A DNA stretch of 64,000 nucleotides from Candidatus Woesearchaeota archaeon (GTDB lineage Archaea; Nanobdellota; Nanobdellia; UBA10117; JABICX01). Within the stretch, counting starts at the first letter, position 1, and every line of letters begins with the position of its first letter. Shown in pieces: positions 3,875 through 39,311 of the stretch. The stretch spans positions 9,332 through 73,331 of the forward strand of contig JABHLG010000009.1 of NCBI GenBank assembly GCA_018692915.1. Reading direction: 5' to 3'. The position numbers and the translations under genes were made by a program. The notes below the pieces were generated by a model, which worked only from the letters and a program-made list of their open reading frames with translations, was not told the DNA's origin and did no database searches.

Positions 3875-4240
3875 TTAGAAAACCTTCTTGACGTTATCTA
3901 AATCAAAAACTTCTTTGATATCAACAACTAAAACATGATGAGGTATTATATCATCACCTTTGCTCTTTTCCATAGTAATATCAAAATACTCTCCAGATGA
4001 GTATATCTCACATTTTCCACTAGCTGCATAATAGTATTTACCTTTATCTAAAGCAGCAAGAGAAACGTTTTTGTTGTGCTTCAAGTTCTCAAAGGATTTT
4101 TTCATCTGACAAATCCCAATAAGTAGCTTATTTTTATGAAATCCTAAAGAAATCACTGCAATTATCCTTGGATTGCCTGATTTTGAGCAAGTAGCTAAGA
4201 TTATTTCTTCTCTATCACCAAAAGCCTTCTTCCAATCCAT
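3875..4240 (-). CDS. pyridoxamine 5'-phosphate oxidase-like FMN-binding split-barrel protein (putative)
   Basis: Size and pattern (GNPRIIAVISLG ... HHVLVVDIKEVFDL) resemble PNPOx-like flavin-binding proteins. This is recognition by eye only. Confidence 0.4.
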   Translation of the reverse strand: MDWKKAFGDREEIILATCSKSGNPRIIAVISLGFHKNKLLIGICQMKKSFENLKHNKNVSLAALDKGKYYYAASGKCEIYSSGEYFDITMEKSKGDDIIPHHVLVVDIKEVFDLDNVKKVF

Positions 4241-6480: not shown

Positions 6481-8256
6481 CTAAATGCCCCATATTTCTT
6501 TCTCTCGTCTATGGATTTCTGCAATTTCATTAAGGGTTGTCTTTTCTTGTCCATTTAATAATTTTTTAACTCCCTTTAACTGTTTAAAACTTGATTCGGG
6601 CACATCAATATACAACTCATCTCCACCTTCTGCATTTCTGCCAATTGTAATTCCCTTAACAGAAAGCGCTGCTTGCTCGCCTTGTTTTATCTCATCTAAC
6701 TTTTTTCCAGCATCTTCAACACTTTTTATTGTTCCGATAACAAGCCCATCTTTATTCATTATATGTGTATTTGCTCGTATCTTACCTGCAAGAACTTCCA
6801 CACCAAAAATAGCGGGACCTGATTGTCTAAATATATATTGAGGAAGTATTCTAAATTTTCCTGGCCAAGTTATACCTTGTAGCTTTTCTATTTCTGCTTT
6901 CTTTTTCAGCACTTCAATTTGTTCTTCATATTCTTCAACAATTTTGTAAATAACAGGATGACAGATAACAGGAATACTTTCTTTTTCAGCTTCTTTTTTT
7001 ACAGAATCAATACATTTTACATTAAATCCTAGCACAAACCCTGCGCCTATAACTTCTTTCTGACTAGCTGCTTCTAAAACATCATTCTTTGATATGTCTC
7101 CAATATCTGCTTTCTTAATCTGAATACCTTTTTGTTTTAGCAAATTTGCAGCAGCTTCAATTGACCCAAGAGTATCTGCTTTAAGAATAATTCCTACATC
7201 ATCAGTCTCAATTAAAACTTCTTCAATTTCATTTAAAATTCGCTCTTTTGCTTCATCAATTTCATCTTGATTTCTACCTGACGCAAATGGTGCTCCTGCA
7301 AGTGCTTTATCCAAGTCAGGTGCAAGAATTTTGATTCCTGTTGCAGCTACAACTTTATCTACGTGCTTAAAGCTACTCTTGCTATCGCGTATTTCAGATA
7401 ATGGCAATGGCTTAAGCAAAGACCTAATCTTTGTGTCAAAAACATCTACGCCCCCAACAATAATCGTATCTTCTTTAGTTAGAGAACCTGCGTAAATAAT
7501 AACATCCGCAGTAGTTCCCATTCCTTTTTCTTCCTTTATTTCGAGAATTGTTCCTTGTGCAGGTTTATTTACATCAATCTCAAGTTTATCATGTAAAAAT
7601 TTCTGTGAAAGTCCGGTTAAAATCGCTAATAGCTCTGCAACTCCTTCTCCAGAATGTCCTGAAACAGGAACAATAGCAACATTTTTGCTATAATCATCAA
7701 CTTGATTATAAATGTTTGAATCAAAACCTAATTCAGATAACTCTCCAATCAATTTGTAAAATCTTGTTTCGTAAGCTTCTTTTGCTTGCTGAGTTTGCTG
7801 TTTAAGATTTGATAAAAAAGTTTTGTCGTGAGGTTTCCATCCAGTTATCCTATCAACTTTTGTAGCTGCTACAATAAATGGAACTTTGAAAGTTTTAAGA
7901 ATCTGAATAGCTTCTTTTGTCTGAGGCTGAACACCTTGATTAATATCAATTATAAGAACTGCAAGGTCTGCAATTGACCCACCTCGCTTTCGCAGGTTTG
8001 TAAATGCTTCATGACCTGGTGTATCTATAAATAAAAGCCCTGGAATAGTAAATTTCAGATTAAAAACCTCTAAAAGACCACCACAAACCTTTTTCAGCGT
8101 GCCAATTGGCACTTCTGTTGCACCAATATGTTGTGTAATCTTACCTGCCTCTCTCTGAGCAAGAGTGGTTCCCCTAATATAATCAAGCAAAGTTGTTTTG
8201 CCATGGTCTACATGACCCAACACAGTAATTATTGGTTGTCGAATAATTTTAATCAC
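6481..8256 (-). CDS. infB: translation initiation factor aIF5B (IF-2)
   Basis: G-domain GHVDHGKTTLLDYIRGT and DTPGHEAF. Length and domain order are typical of aIF5B. Confidence 0.95.
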   Translation of the reverse strand: MIKIIRQPIITVLGHVDHGKTTLLDYIRGTTLAQREAGKITQHIGATEVPIGTLKKVCGGLLEVFNLKFTIPGLLFIDTPGHEAFTNLRKRGGSIADLAVLIIDINQGVQPQTKEAIQILKTFKVPFIVAATKVDRITGWKPHDKTFLSNLKQQTQQAKEAYETRFYKLIGELSELGFDSNIYNQVDDYSKNVAIVPVSGHSGEGVAELLAILTGLSQKFLHDKLEIDVNKPAQGTILEIKEEKGMGTTADVIIYAGSLTKEDTIIVGGVDVFDTKIRSLLKPLPLSEIRDSKSSFKHVDKVVAATGIKILAPDLDKALAGAPFASGRNQDEIDEAKERILNEIEEVLIETDDVGIILKADTLGSIEAAANLLKQKGIQIKKADIGDISKNDVLEAASQKEVIGAGFVLGFNVKCIDSVKKEAEKESIPVICHPVIYKIVEEYEEQIEVLKKKAEIEKLQGITWPGKFRILPQYIFRQSGPAIFGVEVLAGKIRANTHIMNKDGLVIGTIKSVEDAGKKLDEIKQGEQAALSVKGITIGRNAEGGDELYIDVPESSFKQLKGVKKLLNGQEKTTLNEIAEIHRREKEIWGI

Positions 8257-8331
8257 CTATAATAAACAAAAGACAACTTTGTTTTTAAGGCTTTTCAGAA
8301 AATTATATATTTAAATAAAGATTAGTTTAAT

Positions 8332-8559
8332 ATGGATTCTATGTTTACGAGAAACCCAATTAGTAGAATGAAACTAGAGCTTCAGCTAGCTAAAATGAAG
8401 CTTAAAGAGAAATCAAAACTGCGTAGAGAACGCAAGATTGAAAAGCTTAAGCAAAAAGCTATTGAAAACAAATCAAAATTAGAACTTCTTCAACTCAAGC
8501 TAAAGAATAAAAAATTAAAGAGCAAGAGAAAACGATTGAAAAGGAAGCTTAGGAAATAA
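8332..8559 (+). CDS. hypothetical Lys-rich coiled-coil small protein
   Basis: 75-aa ORF, highly basic (KLKEKSKLRRERKIEKLK...). It could equally be a spurious ORF in AT-rich DNA. Confidence 0.25.
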   Translation: MDSMFTRNPISRMKLELQLAKMKLKEKSKLRRERKIEKLKQKAIENKSKLELLQLKLKNKKLKSKRKRLKRKLRK

Positions 8560-8561
8560 TT

Positions 8562-9323
8562 CTATGCAGGTATCCAATAACCTTCTATAGGGTATGTTGT
8601 GGCAGTGATTCTTTGAGGTTTATTTTCAATTAAATCTAATTCTACGCCACAATATTTAACAAAATAACGAAAATCATCTATTGATTTTTTTGAATTAAGA
8701 AAACTATTACTAAAATTATTCATTACAAACATTGCGCTATCTCCTTTAGCATCTCTATTTGGTAAACCCTCACATGTACGCATCATATTTAAATTAACTT
8801 GATAAGGAGAGTCATCTTCTAACTTTACATCTATTTCTTCTATTTTATTATAAGAAAAAGAATGTAAATCTTCAAGTGAATCTATAATTTCTTGTTTGAA
8901 TCCTTCCTCAGGAGATATTTTATTTCGATTAAATAGGCATTTGCAATAAAATGCTAATTTTAAATGATATCCTTGATTATATATATCCTGTGAAACTAAT
9001 TTTGCAAAAAATTGCCCTTCTGAAAACCCTCTTTTATCCAAAACAGGAGTTATCTCTAATGCAAATCGTATATCTTCATTTTCCAATATATCCATTAAAT
9101 CGTTTTTGTGTCCTTCTATTTCATCATCAATATCATTAATTTTATTCTTCACTTGAGCAATATCATGTTCATAATCTTTTTGAGGTTCGCTATAATACGC
9201 GCCCTGTTCACTTTCTAATTGTGCTATTTTATTTCTTAGTGGAGGCTGCTCTTCACGAAGTGGATAAATTGCATCTACATGCACTTCAAATGGTGATGGT
9301 TCTTTTATTTTTTCTGTTGTCAT
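8562..9323 (-). CDS. hypothetical protein (253 aa), first gene of an unknown three-gene operon
   Basis: ORF track entry. It is 2 nt from the next gene. No known motif. Confidence 0.55.
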   Translation of the reverse strand: MTTEKIKEPSPFEVHVDAIYPLREEQPPLRNKIAQLESEQGAYYSEPQKDYEHDIAQVKNKINDIDDEIEGHKNDLMDILENEDIRFALEITPVLDKRGFSEGQFFAKLVSQDIYNQGYHLKLAFYCKCLFNRNKISPEEGFKQEIIDSLEDLHSFSYNKIEEIDVKLEDDSPYQVNLNMMRTCEGLPNRDAKGDSAMFVMNNFSNSFLNSKKSIDDFRYFVKYCGVELDLIENKPQRITATTYPIEGYWIPA

Positions 9324-9325
9324 TT

Positions 9326-9856
9326 TTATCTCATATATCTTCCAATGTAATTATAGCCACGTCCTTTTTCGTTAGGTTCTTTTCTGATATTAGCTAATAA
9401 TATACGATGATATTCAGTGATTAAATCATCTGTTAATTTTGGTGTGATAGGTCTTAATGAATCAATATCAACAAGTAACTCTCTTTTGCGTTCAACATTT
9501 TCCTCGGAAATCAATTGATCTTCTAAACTCTTTTTTTCTGTTTCATAGATATGTTCTCTTAATCCCCTTAAACGCGATTTAAGTGCATCTATGTTTATGC
9601 TAAAATCTATATCTTTATTCTCGCATTGATCTATATTCATATGCGTTTTGTAAATATCTATACGGCTATTAAGACAATACCCTTGATATCCTCGAAGATC
9701 ATCTATCCATTTAATTGCACTAGTTCTTGCAGCGTTTTTATTATCATAGACACCTGCGAATATGCTTTCAGATTCATAACCACTACCCCAGCGGCCACCC
9801 GTAACATAATCAACTTTTATAATATATATGTCTTTTTTTGATGTCTTTTTTGCCAT
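9326..9856 (-). CDS. hypothetical protein (176 aa)
   Basis: ORF track entry, tightly packed within the operon (9323/9326 and 9856/9859). Confidence 0.55.
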   Translation of the reverse strand: MAKKTSKKDIYIIKVDYVTGGRWGSGYESESIFAGVYDNKNAARTSAIKWIDDLRGYQGYCLNSRIDIYKTHMNIDQCENKDIDFSINIDALKSRLRGLREHIYETEKKSLEDQLISEENVERKRELLVDIDSLRPITPKLTDDLITEYHRILLANIRKEPNEKGRGYNYIGRYMR

Positions 9857-9858
9857 TT

Positions 9859-10497
9859 TTATTTTGTAATCATTAAATAATTCTTAATGGCGTCCGCTTT
9901 TGCATTAATTTTATTAAGATATTTTTCTAATTGAGGTTTTACTTGCAGCTCTTTTGCATCTAAGAATTCTGTGTGTTTTTCTTCATTCTCTAACATTCTA
10001 ATTAAATCTTTTTTAGCAAATCCTGCTCGCTCTACAATATTAGATGGTAAATCAAGAAGTCCTCTAAGATTATCATATGTTTTAATTCGATAAACTTCAT
10101 CATGAGGACAAAGACATTTATTTATTCCCATTCTTGGATGTCGATTAGCTATTTCTTCAATAGGTATTGCACAGTCTTGTTCAGCATTACCAACATAATC
10201 AGCACAATTAAAACTTCCAATAAATTTATCAGAACTTCCATCGTTAGTTATGTATCTAAACGCACAATCTTCACAATTTTCATTTGTTGTTTCTCCATTT
10301 TTTACAACAACCATATTTTTTTTAAAGAATCCATTATCGCCATGTAAAAAAAGCTTGCCATCAATAATCAAACCTTCGTCAGTTTGTTCTATTGGAACTT
10401 TCTCCATTGTTCCATTTAGGTATTTATCCTCAGTTTCATTTTCAACAGGAAGACCTGTTTTTTCAGCTAGTTGTTCTAGCACCTCATTAAATTTCAT
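9859..10497 (-). CDS. hypothetical Cys-rich protein (212 aa)
   Basis: ORF track entry. Cysteines: CEDC ... NCADY ... DCAI ... CLCPHDE. No family recognised. Confidence 0.55.
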   Translation of the reverse strand: MKFNEVLEQLAEKTGLPVENETEDKYLNGTMEKVPIEQTDEGLIIDGKLFLHGDNGFFKKNMVVVKNGETTNENCEDCAFRYITNDGSSDKFIGSFNCADYVGNAEQDCAIPIEEIANRHPRMGINKCLCPHDEVYRIKTYDNLRGLLDLPSNIVERAGFAKKDLIRMLENEEKHTEFLDAKELQVKPQLEKYLNKINAKADAIKNYLMITK

Positions 10498-10555
10498 TTT
10501 GTTATCTCTTATTTACACTTATTTCATCAAAAATTTCTGTGCGAAATTTTCGTGC

Positions 10556-10577
10556 TCTGATAACTTACGTCATCAGA
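10556..10577. promoter_or_regulatory. inverted repeat TCTGAT-N10-ATCAGA in the divergent intergenic region between the unknown operon and the Lrp gene
   Basis: The repeat is seen directly in the sequence as tctgataacttacgtcatcaga. It could be an Lrp/AsnC-type operator. Confidence 0.25.
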
Positions 10578-10679
10578 ATGTGTATTATCTATAAGTAGTT
10601 ACGACACTATATAAGAGTTATTAGGAAAAAGGGCTTAAAATAAGCGTAAAACTTATAAATATGGCTCATTATACATTAT

Positions 10680-11177
10680 ATGGAAAATGTTGGTATTGTA
10701 TATGGTGTTGAGCAGAAAGTTGATGCTAAAGATAAGAAAATCCTAAAAGTGCTTTTTGAAGATGGTAGAATGAGCATTGCAGATATTGCAACTAAAACAA
10801 GATTACGACGAGACTCTGTTGCTCGTCGGCTGAAAAAACTAAGGAAAGACAAAGTAATTACGGGATTTGTGCCTGTAATAAATCCTCCTGCTTTAGGATA
10901 TCCAAATATTGCATTAATGTTATTTAGAGTTAAAACTGGAAATGAATCTGCTAAAAAGAAGTTCCAAGATAAGCTCGTAGGTAATAAATTTATTCTTCAC
11001 ATTTCTAAATTGATTGGAAAGTTTGATTTTAATTGTGCAGTTATTTATGAAAACACGAATCATCTTAATCAGATTGTTGAAGAAATCAAAACTTATGTGC
11101 CTAATTTCATAGATAATTTTGAGTTATTCCAAGTTGTTGATGAACCAAAATTTGAGAAGATGAGTGATTTGTTATAA
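10680..11177 (+). CDS. Lrp/AsnC-family transcriptional regulator
   Basis: N-terminal HTH (KILKVLFEDGRMSIADIATKTRLRRDSVARRLKKL) followed by a RAM-like C-terminal domain. Confidence 0.8.
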   Translation: MENVGIVYGVEQKVDAKDKKILKVLFEDGRMSIADIATKTRLRRDSVARRLKKLRKDKVITGFVPVINPPALGYPNIALMLFRVKTGNESAKKKFQDKLVGNKFILHISKLIGKFDFNCAVIYENTNHLNQIVEEIKTYVPNFIDNFELFQVVDEPKFEKMSDLL

Positions 11178-11453
11178 TTCACAAACTGCGATTAAAGGTA
11201 TTTGATTTTTAGACAATTTTATATCTGAGTTGTCTTCATTTAAATCTAAGTCATGCTTTCGAATTAATTTTATTAACTCATTTCCATCATATAAAGGTCC
11301 ACCTAATTGTGCAATGTCTTCCATTATAGGTTTTACCTTATCACTATCTTCCCTATGATTTTTAAGATATTCATCTTCATATCTAAAACTATATTCCTTG
11401 CTAGGATCTATTTTAATTGCTATTACTATCGCCTCCAAGTACATATAATACAA
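11172..11453 (-). CDS. hypothetical protein (93 aa)
   Basis: ORF track entry. Confidence 0.35.
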   Translation of the reverse strand: MYYMYLEAIVIAIKIDPSKEYSFRYEDEYLKNHREDSDKVKPIMEDIAQLGGPLYDGNELIKLIRKHDLDLNEDNSDIKLSKNQIPLIAVCEL

Positions 11454-11526
11454 AAAACTTTTAAAACTTATGAATTTATTGAAAATCGAATATTTTCAAT
11501 TCCGCAAAGGAGTTAACTCCTTGGCA

Positions 11527-12777
11527 TTATAAAATACAATCTTGTTTTTTCTCAGAGTGGACACTAGAAGCATGTAAGTCGGTTATATGATGTTTATGTG
11601 CAAGTGATCTTCCCCTAGCCATTATACCTTTTTTAACAAAGAATAAGAAAAGTGCAACTAATAATGCAAATGTGCTAGCGCCCCAAAGAACAACTTTAAT
11701 TGTATAAATATCTGCTAAATAACCTGCAAATATTGTAACTAAACCCACAGTAATTGCATTTGCTGCTCTAAATAAACCAGTTGTTCCACCATGCTCTTTA
11801 CGTGGAGTTAAATGTGAAATTCTAGCTATGAGTGGGTTCCATTCCATATTAAATCCAATACCCATTGTTGCACGCGTAATTGTAAATCCAACAAAATCTT
11901 TGAATAACAAAAAGGCATATCCTGAAGCCCAAACTAAAAAGAATCCAGGTATTATTATATATTTTGATGGGAACTTATCAATTGCTTTTCCAATAGGATA
12001 TTGAGTAAGCATACTAACTAAATATGTAACTGAAAGTAATACTCCTATGCTTTGAATTGATATACCAATACTTCTAAGATAAATTGGCATATATACATAC
12101 CAAATACACCATGCAATATTATGCAAAACACCTATTGTAGCAAGTGTACGAAATTTATGCATATTAATTAAATGTTTATATTCGTAAGCAACATCCTTCT
12201 CTAGCCGTTCTAAAGTTTCATGAGATTTCTTTCCATAATCTTTTACTACAAAACTAATAAACACAATATTAAGAACGCCAATAAACGCTGCAAGATAAAA
12301 CAAGTGTGTAAAACCATAATATGCAATAATTAATCCGCCAATAAATGGTGCAATAACATTACCAATACCTATAATCATATTTGCATGTGCCATTTCTTTA
12401 CCTTCATTACCATGTTTTATTGTATCATAAATATACGCCCAGAAAGCTATCCAAAAGAGCGCGCCAAAAACTTCTACAACTAATTTCATTCCAATAAAAT
12501 GCGCAGTTGTTGATGAAAATATAACACCTAACGCAAAAAGTGGGTATCCGATAGCTCCAATCAACATTAATGGACGACGGCCAACTCTATCTGCCATAGT
12601 TCCAATTGGAAACCGAATAATCCCTGCAATCATTGCACCAAAAGCAAAAACCAGTCCAATATTTACCAAACTTATGCCCATGCTATCAAGATAAATTGGA
12701 AGAAAGTTAGCTACAAGCGCAAAACTAAGAACTATATTAAGCCCACATATTGCCCTAATAATTAGATTTCTATTCAT
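11527..12777 (-). CDS. MFS transporter
   Basis: Twelve-TM hydrophobic profile and the MADRVGRRP motif in loop 2-3. Confidence 0.85.
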   Translation of the reverse strand: MNRNLIIRAICGLNIVLSFALVANFLPIYLDSMGISLVNIGLVFAFGAMIAGIIRFPIGTMADRVGRRPLMLIGAIGYPLFALGVIFSSTTAHFIGMKLVVEVFGALFWIAFWAYIYDTIKHGNEGKEMAHANMIIGIGNVIAPFIGGLIIAYYGFTHLFYLAAFIGVLNIVFISFVVKDYGKKSHETLERLEKDVAYEYKHLINMHKFRTLATIGVLHNIAWCIWYVYMPIYLRSIGISIQSIGVLLSVTYLVSMLTQYPIGKAIDKFPSKYIIIPGFFLVWASGYAFLLFKDFVGFTITRATMGIGFNMEWNPLIARISHLTPRKEHGGTTGLFRAANAITVGLVTIFAGYLADIYTIKVVLWGASTFALLVALFLFFVKKGIMARGRSLAHKHHITDLHASSVHSEKKQDCIL

Positions 12778-12804
12778 ATAGTAAGATATCTCTCTAGTAT
12801 ATAA

Positions 12805-13356
12805 TTATTTCTTAGAATACTCTTGGAAAAGCTGAACTTCTTTCTTAGGTTTTGCAAAGCAGCTTGGATCTAAATCAGATAATCTTATTGTAACAACATT
12901 TATTCCAATTTCTTCAAGTTCATTTGCATCCCTATAATCGAAAGCCCAATCAACATATGTTCTATCATTTTCTTTTGTTGCTTCATTAAAATATACTTCA
13001 CCAACATAACTTAATTTTTTTCCAAGGAAAAATTTAGCATCTTCAAATTCACTCAATCGATGTTTATCATATATATTAAATGTATATATCTCATTAATTC
13101 CTTTTCCTAATATTTTTTCTTTAACATATTCATCAGTAACTGGTGCTATAAATGTATAATCAAATTCAGTATAATCTAATGCATTATGAACTTCTTCTAA
13201 TTCTTCATTTTCATATTTATGAATCGATAGACAACCATCAATCTCTTCTCGAGTTAAATAATCTACTTGGTATCTTAAAATTATATATTTGCCTTCGAAG
13301 TCTTCAGGTAGCAACTTACGTCCTTCTTGCTCAATGATTTTTAATAATTCATTCAT
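12805..13356 (-). CDS. hypothetical acidic protein (183 aa)
   Basis: ORF track entry. Confidence 0.45.
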   Translation of the reverse strand: MNELLKIIEQEGRKLLPEDFEGKYIILRYQVDYLTREEIDGCLSIHKYENEELEEVHNALDYTEFDYTFIAPVTDEYVKEKILGKGINEIYTFNIYDKHRLSEFEDAKFFLGKKLSYVGEVYFNEATKENDRTYVDWAFDYRDANELEEIGINVVTIRLSDLDPSCFAKPKKEVQLFQEYSKK

Positions 13357-17826: not shown

Positions 17827-19166
17827 TTTGGTATTGTCTCCACAATTTTATCAACAAATATTTTTATTCTATCTAATCCTTCTTTTGTTGTGGATTCATA
17901 TGCAAAACCAATTTTTGGCTCTGTGTTTGACGTTCTAAAAAGCGCCCAACCATCATCAAAAATAATTTTAACACCATCAGTATCATCAACATTATGTCCC
18001 TCATTTTTAAGTTTGGTTTTAAGATTATCAATAAATCTAAATTTCTCTGAGTCTTTTATTGTAGCTCGATTTGCTTCAGATACTTCTGAAAAATATTCTG
18101 GAATTAATAATATCTCTTCTTCAATTGTTGTGTTATTATTAATTAAAAACTCCATTAATTTAATTGACGCTAGTAAAACGTCATCTTGATTAAAAGTTTC
18201 ATTAAAGAAATAATGTCCAGATACTTCTCCTGCAAAAACACCATTAACTGCACTAAGCATTCTCGCGATGTGTGTATGACCAACACGACATATTTCTAAT
18301 TCACCGCCATACTTTTCTACAGCATCAGATATCATTCTAGAACACATTACATCGTGCACTATTTTGCCACTATCACATTTAGATAACACTTGTTTTGTAA
18401 GCAAAACAAATAATATATTTGAATCAAGTAATTCTCCATCAGATTTAATAACAAACCATCTATCACCATCACCGTCGTAAATGAAACCTAAATCTGCTTT
18501 TTCTTCAACAACTTTCGCTTTTATTTGACTTAAACTTTTTATTGGGTCTGGTCCATGAACTGGAAATCTTCCATCAGGCTCGCAGAATAATTCAACAATA
18601 TCAAATCCAAGCTCTCTAAGGATATTTGAATAATACTTTCCTGAAGAACCATGTGAACCATCTAGAACAACCTTAAGTCGTTTATCTGATTCAAATTTTG
18701 AATTTTCTATTATGAATTTTTTATAATCTTCAAAAACATCTTTTTTAGTTATAATTCCTTGTCCTAATTTAAATAATTTAGTTTGAACTAATGCTTCAAT
18801 TTTATCGATTCCATTTTCATATGGGATAGATACAGCACCTTTTGTATAAAATTTAATTCCATTATAATTAGAAGGTGTATGTGAACCTGTAATCATTACA
18901 CCACCATCATATTTGTAAAAACCTGTTGCGAAAATCATCATTGTTGTGGATACAATTCCAATATCTATTACATTAGCTCCTGCACTTACTAAACCTAAAA
19001 TAAATTTATTTTTAATAGAGGGTGTGCTTAATCTAGAATCTCCACCAACAACAATTGTTCCGGGATTTATAGTCCCAAATGCTTTCCCAATATTCTCTGC
19101 AGTTTCTTCATTTAATTCACTTGGATAAACTCCACGAATATCATATGATTTATATATTCCTGCCAT
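17823..19166 (-). CDS. glmM: phosphoglucosamine mutase / phosphohexomutase
   Basis: GVMITGSHTPSNYNGIKF phosphoserine loop and DGDGDR metal loop. Confidence 0.85.
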   Translation of the reverse strand: MAGIYKSYDIRGVYPSELNEETAENIGKAFGTINPGTIVVGGDSRLSTPSIKNKFILGLVSAGANVIDIGIVSTTMMIFATGFYKYDGGVMITGSHTPSNYNGIKFYTKGAVSIPYENGIDKIEALVQTKLFKLGQGIITKKDVFEDYKKFIIENSKFESDKRLKVVLDGSHGSSGKYYSNILRELGFDIVELFCEPDGRFPVHGPDPIKSLSQIKAKVVEEKADLGFIYDGDGDRWFVIKSDGELLDSNILFVLLTKQVLSKCDSGKIVHDVMCSRMISDAVEKYGGELEICRVGHTHIARMLSAVNGVFAGEVSGHYFFNETFNQDDVLLASIKLMEFLINNNTTIEEEILLIPEYFSEVSEANRATIKDSEKFRFIDNLKTKLKNEGHNVDDTDGVKIIFDDGWALFRTSNTEPKIGFAYESTTKEGLDRIKIFVDKIVETIPK

Positions 19167-26948: not shown

Positions 26949-28712
26949 ATGAGTAGAATAGCAATATTAAAACGTGCGGATTGTAATCCTAAAAAGTGCA
27001 GTCATGAATGTGAAAAATACTGTCCAGTTAATCGAACAGGTAAAGAATGTATCATTATAGATGAGACTGCAAAGATAGCTGAAGAGCTCTGCACGGGTTG
27101 TGGAATCTGCCCAAAAAAATGTCCATTTGATGCAATTCAAATTGTGAATCTTCCTCATCAGCTAAAAGAAAAACCTGTTTTCCGTTACGGTAAAAATGCT
27201 TTTGAACTTTTCAGACTCCCTGTTCCGCAAAAGGGTCAAGTTGTTGGTATATTAGGTTCAAATGGAATTGGTAAATCAACTGCACTTGAAATGTTAGCAG
27301 GACTTTTAAAACCAAATCTTGGTCAATTTGAAAAGGAACTTTTAGAAAAGGAAATTATTGATAGTTTTAAGGGAACTGAATTACAAGCATATTTTACTAA
27401 ATTATTTTCTAAGAAAATTTCAGTTAGTTACAAGCCACAATATATTGATTTAATCCCAAAGAAGTTTAAGGGTAAGGTTATTGACTTACTCTCAAAAGCA
27501 GGAAGCAAGAAACAAATTGATGAAATCTCAAAAGAAATTAACATTGGAGCGATTATTAACAGAAAAATTGAACAGCTATCAGGTGGAGAATTACAAAAAG
27601 TTGCAATTGCTGCTGCTGTATTAAAAGAAGCTGACTTATATTTGTTTGACGAGCCAGCATCTTATTTAGATGTTAAAGAAAGAGTTCGTGTTGCAAAAGT
27701 AATTAGAACTCTTGCTGAAAAAGGAAAGCATGTAATTGTCGTAGAACACGACTTGATTATTTTAGATTATCTTGCAGACCTCATTCATATTTTATTTGGG
27801 CAGATGGCAGCTTATGGAGTTGTATCACATCCCCTATCTGCTAAAAATGGCGTTAATACTTATTTAGATGGTTATTTACGAGATGAAAATATTCGATTTA
27901 GAACTCAATCAATTAAGTTTGACCATTCTGCAGCAGGTAGAAGCCAAGATTTAATTGTATTTACAAAATGGCCTGCACTTAAGAAAAAGCTAGGAACATT
28001 TAATCTAGAAATTGAACCTTCTGAAATTCACAAAAAAGAAATTGTTGGAATTGTTGGAGCAAATGCAATTGGTAAAACTACTTTTATGAAAATGATTGCA
28101 GGTCAACTTAAGCCAGACTCTGGCAAGATTCCTGCAAAACTAAAAATATCTTACAAAGAACAATATCTAAAACCACAAAAAGGCGTAACTGTAATGTCTG
28201 CACTTAGTTCAGTTACAAAAGAAATTATGACACAAAAATTCAAGCTAGATATTTTACGACCTTTGGAAATTGAACACTTGATGAATCACAAACTAGATGA
28301 ATTATCAGGTGGGGAACTTCAGAGAGTTGCAATTGCAGCGTGTCTTGCTCGCAAAGCAGATTTCTATTTGCTTGATGAACCTTCAACATATCTTGATGTT
28401 GAGCAAAGACTTCAAGCTGCTCGTGCAATTCAGAAAGTTATCAAAGATAGAGAAGCAGCAGCATTAGTAATTGACCATGACCTCTTATTTATCAACTATG
28501 TCTCAGATAGATTAATGGTTTTTGATGGAACTCCTGCAAAGAAAGGTAAAGCAAACAAAATTCAAACAGTTAAAGCTGGAATGAATCACTTTTTGAAAGA
28601 ACTAGATATCACATTAAGAAAAGACCCTTCAACTCACCGTCCTCGAGTTAACCAACCAGGAAGTCAGAAAGATAAAGTTCAAAGAAAACAAAATAAGTTT
28701 TACGAATTTTAA
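26949..28712 (+). CDS. abce1: ABCE1 / RNase L inhibitor-type ribosome recycling ATPase
   Basis: N-terminal 4Fe-4S ferredoxin Cys clusters (CNPKKCSHECEKYCP, CTGCGICPKKCP) followed by two ABC cassettes (LSGGELQ x2). Confidence 0.95.
   Translation: MSRIAILKRADCNPKKCSHECEKYCPVNRTGKECIIIDETAKIAEELCTGCGICPKKCPFDAIQIVNLPHQLKEKPVFRYGKNAFELFRLPVPQKGQVVGILGSNGIGKSTALEMLAGLLKPNLGQFEKELLEKEIIDSFKGTELQAYFTKLFSKKISVSYKPQYIDLIPKKFKGKVIDLLSKAGSKKQIDEISKEINIGAIINRKIEQLSGGELQKVAIAAAVLKEADLYLFDEPASYLDVKERVRVAKVIRTLAEKGKHVIVVEHDLIILDYLADLIHILFGQMAAYGVVSHPLSAKNGVNTYLDGYLRDENIRFRTQSIKFDHSAAGRSQDLIVFTKWPALKKKLGTFNLEIEPSEIHKKEIVGIVGANAIGKTTFMKMIAGQLKPDSGKIPAKLKISYKEQYLKPQKGVTVMSALSSVTKEIMTQKFKLDILRPLEIEHLMNHKLDELSGGELQRVAIAACLARKADFYLLDEPSTYLDVEQRLQAARAIQKVIKDREAAALVIDHDLLFINYVSDRLMVFDGTPAKKGKANKIQTVKAGMNHFLKELDITLRKDPSTHRPRVNQPGSQKDKVQRKQNKFYEF
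28671..28712 (+). repeat. direct repeat copy 1 (last 42 nt of ABCE1 including the stop)
   Basis: gataaagttcaaagaaaacaaaataagttttacgaattttaa is identical to 28804-28845 except for one C/T difference. Confidence 0.8.
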
Positions 28713-28781
28713 TATTTCTAAATTTTAAGAATAACAAGTTTTTTGACGAACAAATTTACGTTCTGAGGAGAAAAGGCGTGG

Positions 28782-28803
28782 TCAAACTTCGCCCGAAGTT
28801 TGA
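28782..28803. other. GC-rich perfect hairpin (9-bp stem, 4-nt loop) between the two repeat copies
   Basis: tcaaacttc-gccc-gaagtttga. It is an unusually GC-rich structured element in an AT-rich spacer. Confidence 0.5.
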
Positions 28804-28845
28804 GATAAAGTTCAAAGAAAACAAAATAAGTTTTATGAATTTTAA
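28804..28845 (+). repeat. direct repeat copy 2 (non-coding duplicate of the ABCE1 3' end)
   Basis: A 42-nt copy with one mismatch, 133 nt downstream of copy 1. Confidence 0.8.
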
Positions 28846-28922
28846 ATTTATTAAAACAAAAGTGCTAAAGATAATATCTTAATTAGTATTTGTTTAAAAA
28901 TATTCCTAACACGAAATGGGAT

Positions 28923-37306: not shown

Positions 37307-37400
37307 TTCCCAAACTTATTTATATATTAAAGAATATATATTCTATTATGATGTTAAAATGTGAAACATTTGAACGGCCCGCTAAAATGGAGGTTTTAGC

Positions 37401-39311
37401 GTGAAATTAAGTCCTACTTATTGGGAAGCAGGAAGAGCAGGTAATGATCAACATATTACTTCTATAGGCAACATCGGAATTGGAACTCATGCAGGAAAAG
37501 ACCAACTCCAAGAATTAAAAGCTAAGATTTTCAAAGGTGCTGGTGCTGTTGAACTTGGTTTTATGGGCCGTGGAAAGGGTGTAAAAGGTCAAGGAAACAC
37601 TACTCCTGGAATGCATGGTAAAGAAGAACGAGAAGCAATGCGCGACCTTGCAAAAGTAAATAAAGTTCGGTTATCAACACATGCGTCAGTTGGTGCAGGT
37701 TCATGGTCAGGTTTTCACGAAAACAAATTTGATGAAAATGCACGAGAACAAAATATTTTCGAAGGTAAACGAGCAATTGAATTTGCAGCAGATGTAGCAG
37801 AGGGCGGACCAATTGTTATTCATACAGGTGAATTTCCAAGAGGTATTACAGAAGTTCCTAATGGTGATGATAACTTTCGAACATTAATAAAAGAAAGTGG
37901 TCAGCAAACTCATTATCTTATGGATAAAAAAACAGGACAGTTAATCACAGCAGTTAGAGAAGACCAAGTAAATTTCGTGCCTGAATATGATGTAACAACA
38001 AATGAAAAAGACCAGTGGGGTAAAGAAATAAAACATATTAAATGGAAAGATAAACCAGGTGGAGAATTTAATATTATTAAACATAATTGGGCACATTATA
38101 AAGAAGAAGCTAAGAAAAATGATAGAGAAGATTATAAAAAATTCCAAAACCCTAACGATAAAAATTATGACCCTTCAAAATCAGCAGATCCATCTATACT
38201 TTTCTATTATGAAAATCTTGAAGCTAAACGATTACAAGCTCAAGGACAAGCAGATGAGTATGAATTAATGTATCGACGGCACGCAGATGATAGAGAAAAA
38301 ATCAAAAAAGCAGTAGATTATTGGGAAAAAAAATGGAAAGAAATACCTAAAGAAGATAGATGGAAACATATGGAAGCAATACCTATCGAAGGTAAAGGAT
38401 TAGTAGAACCACATGTTCGTAACAGACTTGAGCACCTTAAAAGAATGCTTGAAGACACTGAAAAGCAAATGAGTTATGGAAAAGAAGTCGCAGCTAGTTC
38501 ACGTGCTAATGAGCAAGAAATTAAAGACCAGCAAAAGAGAGTTACGTCAATTCCAGATTATGGTTTAAAAAAGACTGCAGATTCTATCGCCACAATGGCT
38601 ATTTATGCTGCTGAAGAACAGCAAAAGAAAAATCTAAAACGTGATATGTTTATAGCTCCTGAAAATATTTTTCCAGAAATGGGTTATGGTTCCCATCCTG
38701 ACGAACTTAAAAAAATTGTTCAAGACTCACGTAAAGAAATGGTTAAAAAACTAACAGATCCATTTATTGAAAGAAATGGTGAAAAAATCAAAAATCCAGA
38801 TTTCCATGCAAACCTTAGTGAAAGTAAAGCAAAAGAAATGGCTGCGCGACACATTAAAGCAACTTTTGATATTGGGCATGCAAATACTTGGCAAAAATAC
38901 TTTAAAGGCAAGCCAAAAGAATTCAAAAAATGGCTTATTGATCAAGTATCTGAACTAAACAAGGAAGGAGTTCTTGGTCACGTGCACGTTACAGATAATT
39001 TTGGTTATTATGATGAGCATTTATCTCCAGGGCAAGGTAATGTTCCTGTTGAGGAGTTTGTTAAGCAATTAAAAAAATCTGGATATAAAGGTCAAATTAC
39101 AGTTGAAACTGCAGAGCAGGACTACAAAGCAATGACTGAAATGTGGAGAACTGTAAACAGTCCCGTTTATAAAATCGGTGGCGGATGGCAAGACTGGGCA
39201 GGTATTGAGCAAGGATACTTTGGTAAAACTCGCTCACCTAATTTCTTATTTGGTCCAATTGCTCCAGACCCAAAAACATGGACTCTTTGGTCAGAAGTCC
39301 CGATGGAATAA
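37401..39311 (+). CDS. xylose-isomerase-like TIM-barrel (sugar phosphate isomerase/epimerase / endonuclease IV superfamily) protein with about 330-aa charged insertion
   Basis: N-terminal barrel half GAVELGFMGRGKG ... RLSTHAS ... IVIHTGE. C-terminal half FDIGHANTW ... GHVHVTDNFGYYDEHLSPGQGNVPVEEFVKQLKKSGYKGQITVE. GTG start with ggagg SD at -12. Confidence 0.6.
   Translation: MKLSPTYWEAGRAGNDQHITSIGNIGIGTHAGKDQLQELKAKIFKGAGAVELGFMGRGKGVKGQGNTTPGMHGKEEREAMRDLAKVNKVRLSTHASVGAGSWSGFHENKFDENAREQNIFEGKRAIEFAADVAEGGPIVIHTGEFPRGITEVPNGDDNFRTLIKESGQQTHYLMDKKTGQLITAVREDQVNFVPEYDVTTNEKDQWGKEIKHIKWKDKPGGEFNIIKHNWAHYKEEAKKNDREDYKKFQNPNDKNYDPSKSADPSILFYYENLEAKRLQAQGQADEYELMYRRHADDREKIKKAVDYWEKKWKEIPKEDRWKHMEAIPIEGKGLVEPHVRNRLEHLKRMLEDTEKQMSYGKEVAASSRANEQEIKDQQKRVTSIPDYGLKKTADSIATMAIYAAEEQQKKNLKRDMFIAPENIFPEMGYGSHPDELKKIVQDSRKEMVKKLTDPFIERNGEKIKNPDFHANLSESKAKEMAARHIKATFDIGHANTWQKYFKGKPKEFKKWLIDQVSELNKEGVLGHVHVTDNFGYYDEHLSPGQGNVPVEEFVKQLKKSGYKGQITVETAEQDYKAMTEMWRTVNSPVYKIGGGWQDWAGIEQGYFGKTRSPNFLFGPIAPDPKTWTLWSEVPME

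Follow-up and report, generated by a model that had tools for sequence, protein, structure and literature searches.

Three genes of no recognised family that abut one another in an archaeal genome, next to a gene for a transcriptional regulator, raise the question whether they form a novel conserved functional module, as an initial annotation of the locus had proposed, or belong to the private gene stock of one lineage. The genes lie in a stretch of 64,000 nucleotides (contig JABHLG010000009.1, positions 9,332 to 73,331; hereafter the window) of a tiny marine DPANN archaeon, Candidatus Woesearchaeota archaeon, with a G+C content of 30.5%. In the table of open reading frames (ORFs) all three are on the minus strand: gene A, the first gene of the operon (9859-10497, encoding 212 amino acids), gene B (9326-9856, 176 amino acids) and gene C (8562-9323, 253 amino acids). 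We found that A-B-C is a cluster of orphan genes that is restricted to a narrow lineage and belongs to the flexible genome of this archaeon. It is a typical piece of the fast-changing 'dark' accessory genome of the group, and not a widely conserved new module.

The cluster itself is real. The three consecutive minus-strand genes and both 2-nucleotide gaps (A/B and B/C) are present as had been annotated, and the two junctions consist of the same 8-mer, TAA-AA-ATG. Runs of 176-253 codons free of stops have a chance probability of only 5e-7 to 1e-9 at this G+C content, and the ORFs are therefore not accidental. All three frames are preserved in a sister lineage, the genes are called alike by NCBI, JGI and ENA, and their codon usage and G+C content at third codon positions resemble those of host genes. 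Exact look-ups identified the products as MBT7062770-772, annotated as 'hypothetical protein' in metagenome-assembled genomes (MAGs) of Candidatus Woesearchaeota archaeon, with neighbours that carry the database names IF-2/aIF5B, Lrp/AsnC and MFS transporter. A hydropathy check revealed no transmembrane segment and no signal-like hydrophobic stretch in A, B or C. A, B and C are thus genuine, co-oriented and tightly abutting genes for soluble proteins, of which A (pI 5.0, net charge -10) and C (pI 4.7, charge -18) are acidic and B is near neutral. The absence of homologues and of a confident fold would also fit reading frames that are open by accident in non-coding DNA, but the A frame survives 56% amino acid divergence with indels that are codon-wise. 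The alignment of the A alleles and the improbability of the stop-free runs effectively refute this explanation, to which we attach next to no probability.

Detectable relatives of the three proteins are confined to two sister lineages. Pfam, NCBIfam, PHROGs and PADLOC were scanned with A, B, C, the small Lys-rich protein K75 encoded next to C, and the product of an orphan ORF, orf93. A, B, C and K75 gave no meaningful match to any family in these collections, which upholds the earlier statement that A to C carry no recognisable motif. Nothing in PHROGs was better than E=0.0015, and the families matched there are of unknown function; PADLOC returned no match for A and C, which do not qualify as catalogued defence components. 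Nor do the genes resemble a type II toxin-antitoxin pair, as there are three of them (176-253 amino acids) and none matches a toxin or antitoxin in Pfam or NCBIfam. Word-indexed searches of 5.8 billion protein clusters with A, B and C retrieved only their own 90% cluster, and a HMMER scan of 1.84 billion representatives with the concatenated A+B+C sequence retrieved only their own clusters, fragments and one further allele of A, P0041, with 43% identity. In total, no homologue outside the two sister lineages of one Woesearchaeota genus was found among ~15 billion proteins. A scan of JGI metagenomes with an alignment of A recovered only the haplotype of the sister-lineage contig L001, IMG/VR contained no relative of A, B or C, and sequence searches of the PDB with the three proteins gave no significant match. 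No paralogy was detected among A, B, C, orf93 and g183 (an orphan near the MFS gene), or with any ORF of the sister loci, even at E<=5. In the literature on hypervariable loci of DPANN archaea and Woesearchaeota we found nothing relevant.

Several weak matches were considered and set aside. The sub-threshold family matches (KIF21A, DUF7838, DrrA1-3_C, SoFic and two PHROGs) were never common to both alleles of A. The SoFic match of B (E=4.4e-4, 17.7 bits) lies in a helical stretch, and B has no Fic motif and no Pfam Fic match. A PDB match to HMG-CoA reductase (E=0.018) was dismissed as chance, as was one between the C-terminus of A and ribosomal protein bL9 (E=0.04-0.08), in which the two matched pieces occur in permuted order.

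The restriction to one genus is also evident from gene order. In the sister-lineage contigs (L001-L006 and L029, with C 89% identical) the order MFS, Lrp, A, B, C, K75, aIF5B is the same as in the window and the 2-nucleotide gaps are identical, so the tight coupling of the three genes that had been annotated holds in both lineages; many further contigs are 100% identical to the window. In a third lineage (JABICX01, L007) aIF5B is 82% identical. In five distant genomes (L008-L012, aIF5B 59% identical) the MFS transporter gene (11527-12777 in the window) lies directly upstream of the aIF5B gene (6481-8256), at a distance of ~50-60 bp in L008 and L011, the two that were read ORF by ORF. Within 10 kb of MFS/aIF5B, none of these five genomes gave a match to Lrp, A, B, C or K75. 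The ~3.3-kb block orf93-Lrp-A-B-C-K75 (8257-11526) is therefore lineage-specific. The proposal of a conserved functional module fails on this point, as related genera lack the whole block, and since A, B and C have no homologue beyond the two sister lineages, co-occurrence across genomes cannot be shown. No integrase, transposase or tRNA gene was found in or beside the block, its composition and codon usage show no anomaly relative to the host, and no Rfam match was obtained.

Some further features of the surroundings of the block were noted. The orphan ORF orf93 (11172-11453, minus strand) occurs in the window lineage only and is called as 88-90 amino acids elsewhere; the region 11178-11526 has no counterpart in L001, and the protein cluster of orf93 has two members, both 'hypothetical'. 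The orphan g183 beside the MFS gene (12805-13356), from a tiny 'hypothetical' cluster, is replaced in the sister lineage by an unrelated ORF of 162 amino acids. In a Pacearchaeota-labelled MAG (L014, 6231-9960; aIF5B 65% identical) three other co-oriented orphan ORFs of 458, 558 and 217 amino acids, without Pfam match and in singleton clusters, lie directly upstream of aIF5B. Lineage-specific genes may have a hotspot in front of aIF5B. An imperfect 19-nucleotide direct repeat (16/19) is found at the edges of the block, at 8268-8286 just upstream of aIF5B and at 11531-11549 in the last codons of MFS. It may be the scar of an insertion or have arisen by chance, given that the same 3.4 kb holds 26 repeat families of comparable quality.

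Another important finding was that the cluster is an evolutionary mosaic. In 200-bp sliding windows over the DNA that can be aligned between the window and L001 the median identity is 89.5%, and all those with at least 97% identity start at 8539-9639, covering 8539-9838. A tract of 97-100% identity (8990-9880) runs from the 3' end of A through the whole of B and across the 5' third of C, and a second such stretch lies in the C region (8740-8561). This is the sole near-identical DNA between two lineages that are otherwise ~10% divergent. B is 98.9% identical at the nucleotide level, with six nonsynonymous and no synonymous differences, i.e. none at 104 synonymous sites, against a background dS of 0.35-0.7. 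Given this absence of synonymous change, the B-C tract appears to have been exchanged recently, by recombination or transfer, between the sister lineages. The recurrence of both haplotypes in assemblies made independently at ENA and JGI speaks against an artefact of assembly. The contig L005, which joins a window-type A to an L001-type C, was rejected as proof of recombination: it is only 3.9 kb long, comes from a mixed sample and is possibly an assembly chimera.

Gene A shows the reverse pattern. Two deep alleles exist with 43-44% amino acid identity, the second (P0041) encoding 223 amino acids, and in the sliding comparison A and its promoter side are only 50-60% identical at the DNA level between the sister lineages. 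The dN of A is 0.46 versus 0.02-0.04 in core genes, and the ratio of nonsynonymous to synonymous substitution rates (dN/dS) of A and C is about 0.4-0.5. Nevertheless, both alleles retain the full length, with indels of whole codons, as well as a CPHDEVY motif and a C-terminal LNKINAKA helix. The annotation had described A as Cys-rich (CEDC...DCAI...CLCPH); the six cysteines are there (C75, C78, C98, C109, C128 and C130), but only four of them are conserved together with His132, as C98 and C128 vary between the alleles. The invariant set C75-x2-C78...C109...C130-P-H132 (10102-10275, minus strand) is a putative metal (Zn) site, and with low confidence A may bind metal through it. It does not make A a zinc ribbon or Cys4 zinc finger: there is a single CxxC (C75-x2-C78), the remaining conserved candidate ligands C109, C130 and H132 are single residues, and no zinc-finger family of Pfam was matched. 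Contigs often end inside A, next to A or at the CPHDEVY island, and both alleles were found in contigs of a single sample, ERZ27250245.

Two contigs with aberrant forms of A were observed. In L004 (1325-2044) the gene is frameshifted near its 3' end, which results in a 239-residue product overlapping the beginning of B. The frameshift is due to an error of sequencing or assembly, or else it is a genuine variant in which the A/B junction is disrupted. The contig L024 (JGI Ga0209042_1003786) begins with 154 nucleotides, joined to the locus at window position 10464, whose translation corresponds to residues ~250-308 of a bacterial-type MreB (PDB 4cze, E=3e-18). This segment is fused in frame to A at EKTGLPVE, and A itself matches that MreB motif at residues 12-19. 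The fusion is probably a chimeric assembly via a shared string of ~24 nucleotides; neither the window nor the other loci contain a gene for MreB.

In gene C (dN/dS 0.43) the changes are concentrated: 25 of the 27 amino acid differences between the lineages fall in residues 112-205 (8709-8990, minus strand), a variable patch with a dN/dS of 0.53 and a dS of 0.24, so that synonymous changes are present as well. Residues 1-105 are constrained (dN/dS 0.11, p=0.013 versus neutrality). A diversity-generating retroelement is not indicated, as nothing in the 64-kb window repeats the variable region of either A or C. With a split A, exchanged B and C ends and a variable patch in C, the cluster behaves as flexible-genome DNA.

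The small basic protein noted beside the cluster, K75, is encoded on the plus strand (8332-8559). It has 75 amino acids, is rich in Lys and Arg, helical and extremely basic (pI 11.4, charge +23.5). The gene converges on C, with 2 nucleotides separating the stop codons, and diverges from aIF5B, and a TATA-like sequence (TTATATATTTAAATA) lies 15-29 nucleotides upstream of its ATG. With 18 synonymous versus 3 nonsynonymous changes (dN/dS 0.03) K75 is a separate, real and strongly constrained gene. It is therefore a genuine neighbour of the cluster but not a downstream member of the operon, from which it differs both in strand and in dN/dS.

On the other side, A diverges from a gene for an Lrp/AsnC-family regulator (10680-11177, plus strand, 165 amino acids, dN/dS 0.05). 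This part of the annotation was borne out by a clear AsnC-type winged helix-turn-helix (HTH) domain (PF13404, E=4.8e-11, 42.7 bits at a cut-off of 27; PF13412, E=1.5e-10). The C-terminal RAM/AsnC_trans_reg domain was matched weakly (PF01037, E=0.015, 15.6 bits versus a cut-off of 25), and the Lrp-type models of NCBIfam align over residues 17-136, all scoring under their own cut-offs. The alignment of the 182-bp spacer between A and Lrp (10498-10679) with L001 (8666-8793) and L004 and its identity profile revealed that ~100 bp beside Lrp are conserved and that the A-proximal portion is allele-specific, with the final ~25 bp upstream of the ATG of A conserved too (AAGTGTAAA..AGAGATAACAAAATG). 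The inverted repeat TCTGAT-N10-ATCAGA that had been pointed out in this region is present (10556-10577) but is not supported as an operator for Lrp: when the spacer sequence was shuffled, 83% of the shuffles contained an inverted repeat of 6 bp with a spacing of 0-20 nucleotides (30% when at least two G/C per arm are required), and the repeat is missing in the sister allele. A longer perfect inverted repeat, AAAATTTC-N5-GAAATTTT (10530-10550), lies 33-53 nucleotides upstream of the ATG of A; both repeats fall in an allele-specific indel of ~54 bp that is absent from the sister allele. The comparison of the two alleles thus yielded no conserved palindromic operator for Lrp in the spacer. K75, A and Lrp each have an AT-rich TATA-like box ~22-27 nucleotides before the ATG, and in archaeal promoters such positions would suggest leaderless or short-leader transcripts. 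Since A-B-C and Lrp are arranged divergently in both lineages, control of A-B-C by Lrp is plausible.

How far is this pattern specific to the locus? Between the window and the sister lineage, core genes have a dN/dS of 0.05-0.13 and a dS of 0.2-0.7, with MFS, Lrp and aIF5B at ~0.05. The PGM gene (17874-19157) and a PNPOx-like gene (3878-4240) have only 33% and 41% amino acid identity, respectively, to their positional counterparts, versus 92-97% in core genes. This suggests that genes have been replaced, or paralogues swapped, outside the A-B-C locus as well. As orphan status, fast evolution and mosaicism are seen in other genes of the same genome pair, they are general traits of the flexible genome, and the sole signal specific to the locus is the recently shared B-C tract beside the deeply split A.

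What the cluster does can be proposed only tentatively. The reading we prefer, with a probability of roughly 0.4, is that A, B and C form a coupled complex with an accessory role in a changing interaction. The identical TAA-AA-ATG junctions would lead to coupled translation and roughly equal amounts of the three proteins, which might assemble through long predicted helices into one cytoplasmic complex; joint production and a single assembly are suggested by these junctions and by the helix-rich, oppositely charged products. In such a complex A could supply a metal-stabilised (Cys4/His), allele-variable recognition domain, B may be the invariant core and C an acidic partner whose surface varies. 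Transcription would start from the allele-specific promoter that faces the Lrp gene, perhaps set by Lrp. The evolutionary pattern of the cluster favours an accessory, lineage-specific role over housekeeping, and a fast-changing interaction (with a virus, a host cell or mobile DNA) would be likelier than core metabolism. We hold each step of this mechanism with low confidence, and are much surer of the real genes, their orphan status, the lineage-specific block and the mosaic evolution.

Several observations weigh against this proposal. Complex formation, metal binding and control by Lrp were all read from the sequence, and neither the sequence nor the fold searches gave any biochemical clue to the function of A to C. 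The structure prediction and Foldseek comparison that had been suggested as a check were uninformative: the AlphaFold2 models of A (predicted with a four-row alignment) and of B+C (concatenated as a single sequence) are unusable, with a predicted local distance difference test score (pLDDT) of 48 and 37, respectively, and neither had a match in the PDB at E<=0.001, where any match would be meaningless at such confidence. These low-confidence models contain long helices in A (residues 162-211), B (residues 86-158) and the N-terminal half of C, and in B a small beta-beta-alpha-beta unit at the N-terminus that precedes the helices. A raised dN/dS was also found in other orphans of the genome pair (0.61 in dark171 and 0.39 in dark71), and the 0.4-0.5 of A and C may simply reflect weak constraint. 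The six nonsynonymous and zero synonymous differences in B do not deviate from neutrality (p=0.6), and the selection tests are weak since there are only two haplotypes. Orphan status is the local norm: of the 26 complete genes that surround the locus in L001, 14 are without a match in Pfam.

The same observations could be taken to mean that A, B and C are young or weakly constrained orphans with little or no function, and that the mosaic results from ordinary homologous recombination between co-occurring relatives. This is rather unlikely. In its favour, the dN/dS of A and C matches that of other orphans here, many neighbours are equally without family, orphans turn over nearby (g183 versus dark162, orf93 present or absent) and one contig carries the frameshifted 3' end of A. 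However, A alleles with 44% identity have kept their length, in-frame indels, four Cys and His and the C-terminal helix, the first 105 residues of C are under constraint, both lineages maintain the 2-nucleotide coupled junctions, codon usage is host-like, and the B tract was passed between lineages intact. Unlikely too, in our view, is a conflict module, either anti-virus or similar to a toxin-antitoxin system, in which A would act as the sensor or specificity subunit that varies, with the roles of effector and partner left to B and C; K75, or an overlapping antisense transcript, could then be the toxic or regulated component. The lineage-specific block, the two deep A alleles in contigs from ERZ27250245, the recurrent contig breaks inside or beside A, the recent spread of the B-C tract between lineages, the clustered amino acid changes in C and the proximity of the acidic A and C to the basic K75 (+23), with stop codons 2 nucleotides apart, are in line with such a module. 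Against it, PADLOC gave nothing significant (only the 17.7-bit SoFic match of B, without Fic motif), Pfam and NCBIfam revealed no nuclease, ATPase, nucleotidyltransferase or other effector motif, neighbouring defence genes are absent, K75, in contrast to A to C, has the substitution pattern of a core gene (dN/dS 0.03 and a background-level dS), and comparable mosaicism occurs in genes as ordinary as PGM and PNPOx.

An extension of this idea, an unprecedented archaeal system for conflict or partner recognition with A as metal-binding allelic sensor, C with a variable surface, B as a core that sweeps through lineages and possibly K75 and Lrp as further parts, seems improbable. It is likewise doubtful, and to a slightly greater degree, that the block is remnant cargo of a virus or mobile element integrated between MFS and aIF5B. 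Related genera miss the block, the 16/19 direct repeat lies at both of its edges and another orphan trio occupies the same position in L014; yet no integrase, transposase or tRNA was found in or beside the block, no relative in IMG/VR and no significant PHROG match was obtained, composition and codon usage are host-like, and repeats of that quality are common in AT-rich DNA.

Among known systems, the cluster is closest to the lineage-specific ORFan gene clusters that are a general feature of DPANN archaeal genomes. Like these it consists of short soluble proteins without family, is limited to a narrow lineage, lies between housekeeping genes and has neighbouring orphans that differ even between sister lineages; unlike these it is unusually compact, with two identical 2-nucleotide coupled junctions, is paired with a regulator and holds the only inter-lineage tract of 97-100% identity. 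With divergent pairs of Lrp/AsnC regulators and their targets it shares a 165-residue AsnC-type HTH protein, an operon across a 182-bp spacer and conservation of the regulator-proximal half of that spacer, but A, B and C are not genes of amino acid metabolism or transport, a conserved palindromic operator was not found and the RAM match is under threshold (E=0.015). Polymorphic conflict loci resemble the cluster in the deep co-existing A alleles, the movement of B between lineages, the clustered variable residues and the assembly breaks at A; they differ in that A to C have no sequence or fold similarity to catalogued defence or toxin families and are without enzymatic motif or mobility genes. 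To specialists nothing here is surprising, since orphans make up about half of the neighbourhood and the cluster is conserved only within a genus-level lineage. If functional, A-B-C would add one case to the very large stock of uncharacterised genes in DPANN archaea, a group in which little is understood of the biology, including host dependence and exposure to viruses. The ancient pair of A alleles beside a recently shared tract is the mark of genes under unusual selection.

Two repeats were observed elsewhere in the window. An element of ~87 nucleotides that precedes the MFS gene as a leader in L001 (6843-6927) has a 90% identical copy at window positions 37320-37405, in front of an ORF of 636 amino acids with a GTG start (37401-39311); the leader of the window's own MFS gene (12778-12830) is without the inner ~53 nucleotides. 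A hairpin in the element, GCTAAAA-(N)GGAGG-TTTTAGC, would sequester the Shine-Dalgarno-like GGAGG; it has no match in Rfam. A direct repeat of 53 nucleotides (91% identical) occurs at 28670-28722 and 28803-28855, 133 nucleotides apart, with the first copy starting at the 3' end of an ORF of 587 amino acids (26949-28712) and running on downstream of it.

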